Virus record (IMG/VR): IMGVR_UViG_3300027747_003534
Coordinates: 1 to 64,000 of that record
Reading direction: 5' to 3' (one strand)
Length of the DNA: 64,000 nucleotides
From: a virus
The notes beneath the pieces are model-generated. The model saw nothing but the letters and a program-made list of their open reading frames with translations. It ran no database searches and had not been told where the DNA came from. This document shows positions 47,422 through 53,400 of this stretch, piece after piece. The number at the start of each line of letters is the position of its first letter. Position 1 is the stretch's first letter. A program made the translations under genes and the position numbers.

Positions 47422-50400
47422 ATGAGCAAAGGATTTAATCTTACAGCAGAAATCAACTTGCGCGGTCCTTCAAATATAAGGACTGTTGTTGCGGATATTC
47501 GCAGGCAAATTGGATCTGTATCCGCAGATATTACTCCGGTAGTTACTAGACAATCTGTCCGTAATGTTGCTAGTGTAATAAGAAGTCAGCTGTCTAATAT
47601 AATATGTGATGTTAAGATCAAAGCCAATACATCATCATTAAGAAGTATTGGATCAGATATAAGAAGACAGTTAAGTGGGGTTAGTGCTAATATTAACGTT
47701 AGGGCCAATCAGTCATCAATAAGAACAATGGCGGCTGACATCAGAAGACAATTAGGATCAATTAATGCTAATGTTAATGTTAGATTCAATACTACTGCTG
47801 TTACAACATATAGTAACAATTTAAGAGGATTAAATGCTAATCTTAATCAGATAATAACCTCAGCCACCAATGCTACAGGAGCCATCAATGCTTTAGCTGC
47901 TGCAATGAGAAGTGCATCAGCTGCTGGATCGGCTATTAATAATACTGCTATAAATGTTGGAAATGTTAGCAGGGCTGCGAATAATACTAGAAATAGCATT
48001 ACTCTAGCATCCAATGAAATGGTAGAGTTTGGTCGTCAATCCGGCTTAGCATTTAGAAGATTTTCAGCTATTACAACTGTTACAAGTGTTATATATGGAT
48101 TAACAAATGCTGTTAGTCAGGGTGTTAAATCTTTTATAGATTTTGATTTGCAAATGACTCGCATATCTCAGGTAACTGGTGATTCAAGAAATAAATTAGC
48201 TGATGTGGCAAATACTATTACAGATTTATCTACTAAACTTGGTGTTTCTTCTAATGAGCTAACAACTACCACAGTAACTCTTGCACAGGCTGGTTTAACG
48301 GCTAAAGATACTGCTACGGCGCTCAAAGCTTTGGCTCTTAGTGCATTAGCTCCATCATTTGATGATATGAATCAAACTGTAGAAGGATCTATTGCTTTAA
48401 TGAGACAGTTTGGTATAGGAGCAAATCAATTAGAAATGGCACTAGGTAGTGTTAATGCTGTGTCTGCTAAGTTTGCTGTTGAAGCTAGTGATATTATTAC
48501 TGCTATTCAGCGTACTGGTGGTGTGTTTGCTGCTGCTAGTAGAGGAGTAAGCACAGGCACAGAAGCATTAAATGAATTTATTGCTGTATTTACCAGTATC
48601 CGAGCTACAACTCGTGAAAGTGCAGAAACTATTGCTACTGGTTTAAGAACTATTTTTACTAGAATTCAAAGAGCAGGAACTATCGAAGCATTACAAGAAT
48701 TTGGAGTTACATTAACTGATTTAGAAGGTAAATTCGTAGGTCCCTATATTGCGGTTCAAAGACTTAGTGAAGGACTAAGCAGATTAGATCCACGAGATCT
48801 TAAATTCTCACAGATAGTTGAAGAATTGGGCGGCTTCCGTCAGATCGGCAAGGTGCTACCACTTATTCAACAGTTCGCAACTGCTCAAGACGCATTAAAG
48901 GTTGCTCAACAGGGCCAAGGATCATTAGCAACCGACGCGGCAAAAGGACAATTAGCTTTAGCTATTCAGATTCAGAAAGTGAGAGAAGAATTTCTTGCTC
49001 TTATTCGTAGCATTGGAGATACTAGTAGTTTTCAAAATATTGTAAAAGTTGGTTTAGATTTAGCCAGCGCTTTAATAAAGGTGGCTGATGCCACTAAGGG
49101 AGTTTTACCATTATTAACTCTGTTTGCTGCATTTAAAGGAATCACTGCGGCCACTCAATATATAGGTGGTTTTAGTCAAGGAATCAGAGGAAATGGTGGA
49201 GGAGCCAGAAGAGCTAATGAAGGTGGTCGTATATATGCTTTTGCTAGTGGTGGATTAGTACCAGGATATGGAAATGGTGATACTGTATCGGCAAAATTAA
49301 CTCCTGGTGAGTTTGTGATGAGCAAGCCAGCAGCACAAAGCATAGGAGTTGGTAATTTACATTCTTTGAATAGGAGTCGTGGAGGATCTATATTCCCCAA
49401 AAATTATTATCAGGGTGGGGTTGCAGCTTTAAAATCACTGTCTCCAGGAGAAAGTGGAAATAGAATCTCAGACTATATAGATTATTACGAGAATGAAACA
49501 AGCAAGACCAGCAAACAAAAAACAGGAAGAAAAAATAAATTAAACAGACAATCACCGAAAATGCTTAGAGGTTTTCAGCTCAAAGATAATGTTAATTCCG
49601 ATATAGAGAGAAGAGTTATTGGGGAATCAGAAATAAAAGAAGCTGTTGCAAACAATGCGAATTTTAGACGCTATATTAATAGTAGAGCAGCCAAAGATAA
49701 GAGTAGAGAGTTCTATGCTGCTCAAGGCGTAGCTTTTGAGGAGTTTTTATTTCAACATATTCTTGAGGGAAAACAATATGAAAAAGCACCCAAAAACAAC
49801 TATCCTTTAGATTTTATACCAAAGACTCCCGGATTACCTCCAGTTGAAGCTAAATTTACTTACGAGCAAGTTCCTGATGCATTTATTTTAAACAAACGAT
49901 TAAGATATAACTTATTGCGTCGTAATAACGAAAAAATATCTCCTTTAACCAGGAAGCAGAAACCCGACAATATTCAATTGGGTCCAACAATTGTATATGA
50001 AATGGGACCTGGATTAAAAAACAAAATCTTTACTCCAAACTCAAGTGAAAGCCAAAAAAGAGGAAGAGAAGAAAGAGCTCAGAAGAGTTTATTAAAAATT
50101 GATAAACTTGGTTTAGAACGTAATAATGGTGGATCTATACAAAAATTCGGTATTGGTGGAAGTACTGACGCTATATCAACATATAAAGCAACTTCTATGA
50201 AACTTAATAGAAGTCTAATGCTTGGAACTCCATTAACTAAAGAAGAACAAAAAAATGTTAAAGATTTAAAAAAACAAACCACAGATAAATTACCAAAACA
50301 ATTATATTCTGGTATTGGAGAAAATAGACTCAATCTGATTAAAAATCAAGTTGGCGATAAGCTACCAAAATCGGTTGGCAAATCATTTACATTACCTGGA

Positions 50401-53400
50401 TTTTTATCTACTAGTTTAGATAGCTCTATAGCAATGGAATTTGCTCGTCAAGGACTTTTGAGTATTTTGACCAACCCCAAGAAAAAGGGTATTAATACTA
50501 ATAAACGAGTTAGTACAGATTATGATTTAGAAAAAGAATTTATATTACCACCAAACTCTAAATTCAAAATCTTAAGCGCAAAAGAAGAGCGAAGTTCTGC
50601 TCGACCCGGAAGTTCTTTAATGAGATCAAAAGCTAGTCTTAATGTTCAACAACTAGCTTCTGGTGGATCTATTCAGCGATTCATGGCCGGAGAGATGGTC
50701 AGAAGAACAAAAAAAGAACGGTTTAAAAAAATAACAGAGTCCGATGCTGCTAAATTAACAGCTTCTCAAATTATAACAGGCCTTACTACTGGACAGACCG
50801 GCCCCGTTAGAGTAGAGGGTATGGATGTTGGAATGATGAGGACTATTCTTGGTAAACGAAATACAACACCAGATATTCAACGCAAAAAAGATGAGATTCT
50901 AAAAGCTTATACCAGAAGAATAAACGGTGAAGTAGATCAACGTCTCGGAATTACTAATCAGAAACAAGCAGCAGGATTACTATTTGGTATTGCTGGTTTG
51001 TACGGCTCTCCATTTAAGCCAACTGATATGGTTGTTGGAGATAAAGGAGAACTTAAAAACATCACAACTGTTCAGGTGATGGGTGGTGTTCCTCGTAAAA
51101 AATTAATGGATAAGGCTGGCATAGGTATTGATGATCTAGATGCTTATGGTAAAGATTTTAGAAAATCTGTTAAAAAAGGAGCTAAAAGACTATTAGTATC
51201 GGATATTCTTAGTCAACTAGGTTTAGGTAAAGCGCTTTATGCTGACTTTGACAAAACATTAGTATTTGGGGCTGATAATCTTCCTGATCTACAGTCTTTT
51301 AACAACAAGAGACAGGTAGGTAGACAATTATTATCAGAAAAAGCTAGACTTAGCACTCTTGGTCAAAAATTAAGAGATTTATTGCTAGTTAAGCCTCAGC
51401 TGTCACCATATGTAAATGTACTAACAGCGCGACCACCCTCCACAGTTGGTCTTTTACAAGCTTTCCTTAAACGACAAAATCTTAATATACCTCGTTCTCA
51501 ATTTACCGGGGTTGGTGGTAATAATTTAAACGAATCTGCAATTGCAAAATTAAAAGCTGCGGAATTACCTCCCGGATCAGTTTTTGTTGATGATAATGGA
51601 AAAAATACAAAAGAAGCAGAACTTAAATCTAAATCACTAAAGGCTAAAGGTGAAGCTGGTATTAAAGTATTTAGATATAAAAGTGCCAGAAATCCGTTAG
51701 ATCAACCGGGTGAAGATACTGCTGCTGGTCTTGCATTTCAAGAATCATTAAGAGGACTTCTTTCAGACAAAAGAGCAATGGCAGCATTTGCTGAAACAGG
51801 AGGAAAGAGCATTGACTTTCCGCTTGGATTAGGAAAACGAGCAGCATTATTTGGTCTAAAACCAAACATACCAACAGATGCCAAAAGAACATTGAATGGT
51901 CCATCAACAGCAAAAGATAATATCACTAATTATCTAAAAGTTCGAGGTTATAATAGCGGTGGAATAATTCAAAAATTTGAAACTGGTGGAGCAACAGATA
52001 GTCTTAGACAATACCAATTGCGATCTAAAGATCTTCATTCTGCTGTTATTTCAAACAAACCAGACAAAACTAAAAGTAATCAGATAAAAGATCTTGACAG
52101 TTCAATGATTGATTCTTTGCCAAAAATACTTTATAGTGGATTTAAAGAAAATCGTAGAAAAATTATTGATCAAGATATAGATCCTAATAAAGACTATAAA
52201 TCTCAGTTAATGAATAAGACTTTTTCTTTTCCGTCATTTTTGTCTACTTCTATAAACTATGATAGTGCTAAAAGATTTGCTGGATCAAATGGAGGGGTAT
52301 TACACATAAGACCAACAGGTAAGGGTGCTAATGTTTTAGAAAGAACCGGTAATAAAGGAAAGAGTGCTCTTTATGATATGGAAGCAGAATATCTATTACC
52401 AAGAAATTCTAGATTTAAAATCAATAGAGTATTAGATACTACTGGACCACTAGGATGGAGATCAGATTGGGGTGCTCCAAATTTTCTAGAAGCTGAAGTT
52501 AAAAGTTTTAAAAATGGTGGAAACATTAGAAGATTTGCTGATGCTGGATTAGTACCTGCTCCTAAATTAATTCAAAGAGGAGGATTCAAGTATAGTCTAG
52601 AAGATATTATTAAAGCCGGTTTTACTGAAGCTCAGTTCATGAAGCAAATACCTGCTCCTGGTGGCTATGGTGAACAGTGGCAAATTGGTGGTTATGGAGA
52701 AGGCTCAATACCTATGCCTCCATCCCTACAACCATATAAAGCTCCACCATCTGTTGTTCAGGATCGGGTTGATCTTGCTCGATCAAATGTTCAAAATAGA
52801 ATGGCAGATGCGGTAAGGAGAGACGGACGCACTTTGAGAGATTACGAGGTTAGCAGTGATCAAAAGGCGTTCAAGAAAATGCGAGGATATGCAATAGGAG
52901 GATCCACACAGGATACTGTACCAGCATTAGTTAGCAATGGAGAAGCTTTTGTACCACCAGAAACAGCAAAAAATATAGGATATGACAAATTAAGAGAAAT
53001 GAACCAAGCAGATCGTAATGGTATGAGGTCATTTGCTGGTGGTGGAATTAGTTTATTTAAGGGACCCGGTAGCGGAACAAGCGACAGCATAGGACCTGTA
53101 GGATTGCCTGTGGGCGGATTTGTTATAAGAGCAGCTGCTACCAAAGCTTTAGGATTAAGTAAGGGCGGAGCCGTTCAAAGATTTGCTTTTGGAGGAAGTC
53201 CTAGAGCAGTACCAAATATTAGCGGCATGAGCGATGCTAGAGCATTATCAGTAGTTGGAGTTACAGATAATGTTACTGGTCAACTAGAAAATTTAGCTAC
53301 GGTATTACAAGAATTAGGTGTTAGATCAGGTGATTCTGCTAGAATTATTCAGAGCGGCATACAAGCAACATACCAACAAGCTATACGAGCAACAGAAGCT

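Follow-up and report, generated by a model that had tools for sequence, protein, structure and literature searches.

The 64,000-nucleotide stretch of DNA analyzed here (the window) makes up the opening 64 kb of one contig of 161,520 bp from an uncultured phage, IMG/VR record IMGVR_UViG_3300027747_003534. On its plus strand lies a giant open reading frame (ORF) that begins at position 47422, occupies the window to 63999, and continues to genome position 70806, encoding a protein of 7,794 amino acids (aa). We assign this protein as a phage tail tape-measure protein because it has an N-terminal PF10145 (PhageMin_Tail) core at aa 265 to 469 (Pfam, E value of 3.8e-22) and because its gene is positioned in a tail gene module, the genes upstream of it having tail-fiber and baseplate PHROG matches. 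Embedded in the protein are two ADP-ribosyltransferase (ART) domains, ART1 and ART2, both of which carry a Ser in the first-strand position that is held by Arg in the R-S-E clade of ARTs, named for its Arg, Ser-Thr-Ser (STS), and Glu motifs.

ART1 is encoded by positions 50128 to 50625 (protein aa 903 to 1068) and ART2 by positions 51955 to 52470 (aa 1512 to 1683), both on the plus strand. The strand-1 motif LYSG of ART1 lies at 50302 to 50313, with the Ser codon, TCT, at 50308 to 50310. Six residues beyond this Ser (+6), in the first turn of the helix that follows strand 1, an Arg within the tripeptide ENR is encoded at 50326 to 50328; the STS motif follows at 50407 to 50415, and the ARTT (ADP-ribosylating turn-turn) loop Y-D-L-E-K-E, containing an aromatic residue and an E-x-E pair, lies at 50521 to 50538 (E-K-E at 50530 to 50538). 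The corresponding elements of ART2 are LYSG at 52129 to 52140 (Ser codon AGT at 52135 to 52137), an Arg-Arg pair at +6 and +7 (52153 to 52158, of which the ENR Arg codon is 52153 to 52155), STS at 52243 to 52251, and the ARTT loop Y-D-M-E-A-E at 52372 to 52389 (E-A-E at 52381 to 52389). An initial annotation of this DNA had described LYSG, an ENR Arg six residues on, STS, and EKE or EAE in both domains, and each of these elements is indeed present in the frame of the ORF that runs from 47422 to 70806. The same annotation had remarked on a shared opening, GG(S/A)TD....Y, which also occurs in both domains and is composite: the GG ends a linker motif and is disordered in the AlphaFold2 (AF2) model (predicted local distance difference test [pLDDT] score of <50), and the Tyr belongs to the first ART helix, where it is conserved. 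The two domains share 36% identity (E value of 5e-30), and a tblastn search of the genome found no third copy.

Fold and ancestry of the two ART domains

Both domains pass the Pfam gathering cutoff for PF03496 (23.4 bits), with scores of 32.2 bits for ART1 and 34.9 bits for ART2. A profile built from 31 homologs matched the iota toxin component Ia, CDTa, VIP2, C3, and Lmo0066 at E values of 1e-25 to 1e-18, and in this profile the Ser column aligns with the Arg of the Y-R-(G/R) strand, which is Arg295 of Ia, as well as with the LYRG of Lmo0066. The STS motifs of both domains align with those of CDTa and Ia, and in both a Phe of the phosphate-nicotinamide (PN) loop (F349 of Ia) is found at STS+11. 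The second phosphate-binding Arg, which resides in the PN loop (R352 of Ia), comes one residue too soon in ART1 and is missing from ART2.

AF2 models of the domains were obtained with pLDDT scores of 85.3 (ART1) and 85.9 (ART2) and have the same topology. They place L-Y-S-G-(I/F) in a β-strand (residues 58 or 59 to 63), and E-N-R opens the next helix (from residue 65). Comparison of the ART1 model with solved structures of R-S-E ARTs (Foldseek, VIA) yielded Z scores of 12 to 13.9 and root mean square deviations of 2.4 to 3.4 Å over ∼135 to 143 residues; the matches were 8za7_B (Z score of 13.9), ExoS (13.7), ExoT, C3, CDTa, CPILE-a, Ia, VIP2, Lmo0066, and Tre1. Neither domain matched PF18760 (ART-PolyVal) up to an E value of 1, and both have the S, STS, and ExE motifs, so that the H-Y-D pattern of ART-PolyVal (strand-1 His, strand-2 Tyr, and strand-5 Asp) is not the one present here. 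In light of the profile matches and the models, both stretches are folded ART domains that descend from the R-S-E clade (Alt/VIP2/C3/iota/ExoS-like). By homology and fold, they are offshoots of the PF03496 R-S-E clade that fail its naming motif, and because the R of that motif is lost we describe them as a variant rather than as members of R-S-E.

Serine-type ARTs among phage tape-measure proteins

A HMMER search of the full protein library returned 193 proteins at an E value of ≤1e-3, the closest of which are 2,000 to 7,900 aa long. The homologs of the ART domains come from uncultured metagenomic sources, and the sole named one, P0010, is designated "TP901 family phage tail tape measure protein" by JGI. 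When the tape-measure core was used as the query, only distant SPbeta-like and cyanophage proteins were found. A tblastn search of 50,697 phage records with the ART block as the query matched none of them, and scans of viral and metagenome contigs with the ART alignments recovered only four close relatives of ART1.

We aligned 73 homologous domains by hidden Markov model and scored the strand-1 column, which contains Arg in 34 domains, Ser in 27, Ala in 3, and Thr in 1. Domains with Ser, Ala, or Thr (S/A/T domains, n = 31) are concentrated in large proteins: 22 of the 31 reside in proteins of at least 1,500 aa, compared with 4 of the 34 domains with Arg. All six Ser-type giants that were scanned, in addition to the protein described here, are PF10145 tape-measure proteins, and only one of these six reaches PF03496 at an E value of 1e-3. 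Tape-measure proteins also include three giants whose ARTs have the canonical YRG; ARTs borne by tape-measure proteins are therefore a wider theme, of which the Ser forms are one branch.

The phylogenetic placement of these domains was evaluated with a tree built without the trait columns; it is unrooted, rests on 150 columns, and is weakly supported. One of its branches (Shimodaira-Hasegawa-like approximate likelihood ratio test value of 92) separates a set in which 23 of 27 rows are S/A/T, and the S/A/T label requires 9 changes on the tree, compared with 24 in shuffles. A single clade made up of the 22 S/A/T domains from giant proteins is not rejected (approximately unbiased test, P = 0.45), this group having been named after the tree was seen.

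The remaining ART motifs are retained nearly throughout the S/A/T set. The first Glu of the ExE pair is present in 29 of 31 domains and the PN-loop Phe in 30, and the first Ser of STS and the catalytic Glu are likewise each present in 30 of 31. P0066 is an S/A/T member in which the Glu has been lost. ART1 orthologs from three viral contigs share 80 to 84% identity with ART1 and have an unchanged LYSGIGENR, and pairwise ratios of nonsynonymous to synonymous substitution rates (dN/dS) against the three are 0.17 to 0.21, indicating purifying selection. These observations support the view that S/A/T ARTs form a conserved, so far unnamed subgroup borne by tape-measure proteins, and they bear out the proposal made at annotation that the Ser marks a variant subfamily rather than decay.

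The NAD pocket and competing interpretations

The S/A/T domains also differ from the Arg forms in the loop that follows strand 1, which conforms to the pattern Y-[SAT]-G-x-G-x-x-[RK]. Gly is found at +3 in 18 of 31 S/A/T domains versus 2 of 34 Arg forms, and Arg or Lys is found at +6 in 18 of 31 versus 6 of 34; among the 22 S/A/T domains of giant proteins, 21 have a basic residue at +4 or +6. The association between Ser and a basic +6 residue has a raw Fisher P value of 9e-4, which is not separable from shared ancestry, and a comparison of phylogenetically independent pairs yielded one supported pair only and has no power. Some YRG relatives, such as P0039 with LYRGIGKNR, combine a G-x-G-x-N-R loop with the canonical Arg; on a tree that is unrooted and poorly resolved, this would be compatible with the loop having arisen first and having made the Arg dispensable.

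Structural work on CPILE-a and Ia describes ten residues that hold nicotinamide adenine dinucleotide (NAD), among which the strand-1 and PN-loop Args contact the two phosphates; in CPILE-a the residue six positions after the strand-1 Arg is another of these ten contacts, and C2-I naturally has Ser in place of the second, PN-loop phosphate Arg (PMC5310789). The +6 Arg of ART1 and ART2 falls on this contact position by linear spacing only, the Ia loop being longer there. It is plausible that the +6 Arg is a relocated substitute for the strand-1 Arg.

We lean toward the interpretation that ART1 and ART2 are working, arginine-directed ARTs with a rebuilt NAD pocket, carried as cassettes in a tape-measure protein and injected with it. 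According to this model, the NAD diphosphate would be held by the remodeled Gly-rich loop, the N terminus of the next helix, and the basic residue at +6 (or +4), and the STS motif, the PN-loop Phe, and the aromatic-x-x-E-x-E ARTT loop would cleave NAD and transfer ADP-ribose to arginines of host proteins. On infection, the ART domains would be brought into the cell together with the tape-measure protein, much as T4 Alt is from the phage head. Arginine-directed transfer is indicated because the E-x-E pair and the aromatic ARTT residue, together the signature of arginine-specific transfer (PMC3102197), are intact.

Several points weigh against this interpretation. R-S-E enzymes are defined by three residues, of which the strand-1 Arg is one; this Arg is reported to "position NAD" (PMC8120803) and counts among the active-site residues of iota toxin (reference 52 in PMC5310789), and loss of activity is a real possibility. 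A +6 Arg is found in some YRG relatives (P0039, P0040, P0044, and P0065) and is absent from some Ser forms. ART2 lacks the PN-loop Arg and has His in place of the usual Asn of the N-terminal helix. Finally, the passage of a 7,794-aa protein with folded domains through a tail tube lacks an explanation.

Two independent and meaningless Arg-to-Ser mutations in a drifting gene might produce the same pair of domains, and the Ser codons, TCT in ART1 and AGT in ART2, belong to different families, as would fit two separate events. Yet S/A/T residues occur in 31 of 73 homologs, which group together on the tree and belong for the most part to tape-measure proteins, the orthologs of ART1 keep the Ser under purifying selection, and Thr and Ala variants that bridge the two Ser codon families occur within the clade. 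Chance or recent decay is very improbable and is already largely refuted by the distribution, by motif retention, and by dN/dS. A more substantial alternative is that the domains are pseudo-enzymes, with an ART fold that does not turn over NAD and that serves as a spacer, a target-binding module, or a binder of NAD or ADP-ribose. The canonical NAD-positioning Arg is gone from both copies, ART2 is additionally without the PN-loop Arg and the helix Asn, and the PF03496 scores of ∼32 to 35 bits contrast with the 76 to 153 bits of YRG-type ARTs in other tape-measure proteins. However, STS, the PN-loop Phe, and both Glu residues of the ExE pair are kept in 29 or 30 of the 31 S/A/T domains, which come from very divergent proteins, and a pure binding or spacer role does not call for such retention; dN/dS for ART1 is ∼0.2, and P0066, with its lost Glu, demonstrates that decay can be seen where it has happened. 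We regard the pseudo-enzyme explanation as unlikely.

The initial annotation had also raised the possibility of altered chemistry. Here the remodeled loop would make the domains dedicated NADases, or would adapt them to NAD-capped RNA (RNAylation of the ModB type) or to NADP as the donor. What has changed in these domains is the diphosphate contact and its loop, while the nicotinamide and ribose side (STS and ExE) is conserved, and T4 ModB, an R-S-E ART, does accept NAD-capped RNA (10.1101/2021.06.04.446905). But ModB has an intact R-S-E motif, and loss of the Arg is thus unnecessary for RNAylation; transfer to protein arginines has as its signature E-x-E with an aromatic ARTT residue (PMC3102197), and no hallmark of a different donor was found in the sequence. 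We consider a change of chemistry doubtful, and the suggestion of NADase or RNAylation activity is unsupported, the intact ARTT residues indicating ordinary arginine transfer. A bolder version, in which Y-S-G-x-G-x-x-R is a re-engineered dinucleotide-diphosphate site, with a strand, a Gly-rich turn, and a helix N terminus arranged in a manner reminiscent of Rossmann-type phosphate binding, and serves a new donor or reaction (for example, capped or extended NAD) and an undescribed host modification, strikes us as a long shot.

Linker motifs, genomic surroundings, and known phage ARTs

The ART cassettes, here and in many giant tape-measure proteins, are flanked by a recurrent linker of the pattern GG-x-(I/V)-(Q/R)-(K/R)-F-x-x-GG, which often follows VQQLA. 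Copies start at window positions 50128, 50662, 51958, 52516, and 53164, with more beyond, and the linker also occurs in P0009, P0012, P0036, and P0061. On the plus strand, ART1 is preceded by GGSIQKFGIGGSTD (50128 to 50169), a repeated GG-x-I-Q-K-F-x-x-GG motif in which residues 1 to 12 of the model have pLDDT scores of <50, and is followed by GGSIQRFMAGE (50662 to 50694); ART2 is preceded by GGIIQKFETGG and followed by GGNIRRFADAG (52516 to 52548).

Comparison with a sister protein, P0007, reveals how these linkers relate to the cassettes. P0007 is 95% identical to the tape-measure protein over aa 1 to 928 and 99% identical in ART2, but its ART1 cassette has been replaced precisely between two linker motifs, with GGSIQRFMAGE at the downstream edge, by an unrelated segment of ∼200 aa (aa ∼913 to 1106). 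The replacement opens with F-Y-H-G-S ... G-A-Y-L-G, and its first 77 residues have one Pfam match, ART-PolyVal PF18760, at an E value of 0.0044 and 18.2 bits versus a cutoff of 31.2. The P0007 cassette may therefore be an H-Y-D type ART in the ART1 slot and, because of this weak match, the slot itself may be selected for ART function. In a 237,915-bp IMG/VR relative, L002, ART1 is kept and the cargo behind it (L002:3601-6498) is wholly different. Cassettes are evidently exchanged between relatives at the linkers, which suggests that these motifs may serve as joints for recombination, as flexible connectors, or as sites of cleavage. Within the L002 cargo are a Walker-A-like stretch, G-A-A-G-S-G-K-S, and a stretch, G-G-F-S-P-P-T-R-G-H, that resembles the HxGH motif of nucleotidyltransferases. 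Pfam gave nothing for this cargo, and the guess that it is a P-loop and HxGH nucleotidyltransferase is unsupported.

The rest of the tape-measure protein has few recognizable domains. Pfam gave nothing for the 443 aa that separate ART1 from ART2, and, if both ARTs and two EF-hand motifs are set aside, the latter at aa ∼5,650 to 5,735 (PF00036, E value of 5.8e-9), ∼6,000 of the 7,794 aa are without a Pfam match. A module of ∼70 aa occurs in seven copies spaced along the C-terminal 4,700 aa, at window positions 56668, 59866, and 62794 and at genome positions 65635, 68296, 69451, and 70324; its pattern is GG-x-(I/V)-Y-A ... G-T-D-T-V-P-A-M-L-T-P-G-E-F-V-(V/I)-N ... L-P-L-L-x-x-I-N, and relatives of this module stand after ART domains in other tape-measure proteins (P0018 and P0025). 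If the ORF sets tail length in the usual way, a tail longer than 1 μm is expected. Immediately 5′ of the tape-measure gene, four ORFs of 340, 344, 108, and 296 aa (window positions 43867 to 47335) occupy the place expected of tail tube and chaperone genes, and no PHROG match was found for any of the four. The structural module also contains a second giant ORF of 4,126 aa (window positions 22848 to 35228), in which Pfam detected only one He_PIG Ig-like domain (E value of 6e-6) and which presumably encodes a giant fiber or adhesin.

Among characterized proteins, the R-S-E toxins (Ia, CDTa, C2-I, VIP2, C3, ExoS/T, and Lmo0066) resemble the ARTs described here in fold and in the helix Tyr/Asn, STS, PN-loop Phe, and aromatic-x-x-E-x-E motifs. 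They differ in having Arg where ART1 and ART2 have Ser and in the loop after strand 1, which in ART1 and ART2 is short and glycine-rich and runs directly into the helix bearing the +6 Arg; in addition, ART1 has its PN-loop Arg displaced by one residue and ART2 has none, and the toxins are secreted, whereas ART1 and ART2 are internal cassettes of a phage structural protein. T4 Alt, with ModA and ModB, belongs to the same ART clade, and a shared logic of virion-borne, early arginine modification of host proteins is presumed (PMC5512222, PMC9503650). PHROG matches to Alt-like families are weak (E values of 2e-4 to 3e-4), and Alt is a separate, head-internal protein with its Arg intact, in contrast to two Arg-less domains within a tail tape-measure polypeptide. 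MuF and SPP1 gp7-VIP2 fusions of actinobacteriophages and Firmicutes phages also place a PF03496-type ART on a virion protein (PMC7302621), and the PHROG matches include phrog_595; the fusions, however, have a head protein as the carrier, a single C-terminal ART, and a canonical YRG.

The polyvalent proteins of phages and conjugative elements described by Iyer et al. in 2017 likewise string effector-type domains, of which ART is the commonest enzymatic type, along one huge virion-associated polypeptide (PMC5512222). According to that study, Alt/VIP2-type ARTs were not found in polyvalent proteins, whose ARTs are of the H-Y-D type, and the phrase "tape measure" is absent from it (PMC5512222); the carrier described here is by contrast a tape-measure protein, and its ARTs are of the R-S-E clade. 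T4 Alt and the MuF-VIP2 fusions are thus the nearest functional analogs of ART1 and ART2, and polyvalent proteins are the nearest architectural analog. A nonexhaustive literature search found no paper on ARTs within tape-measure proteins or on a Ser-for-Arg R-S-E clade and returned MuF-VIP2 fusions and general reviews only.

Recognition and annotation of R-S-E ARTs rely on three residues, among them the strand-1 Arg. If our interpretation is correct, a clade that lacks this Arg and keeps the remaining catalytic apparatus would represent a second way of holding NAD in the ART fold, and the existence of such a clade would explain why standard models underdetect these domains, PF03496 having missed five of the six Ser-type tape-measure proteins. 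It would also add the tail tape measure to the carriers of injected phage ARTs, alongside head proteins (T4 Alt and MuF fusions) and polyvalent proteins of the H-Y-D type; in the tape measure, ART cassettes appear to be swapped among close relatives at conserved linker motifs.

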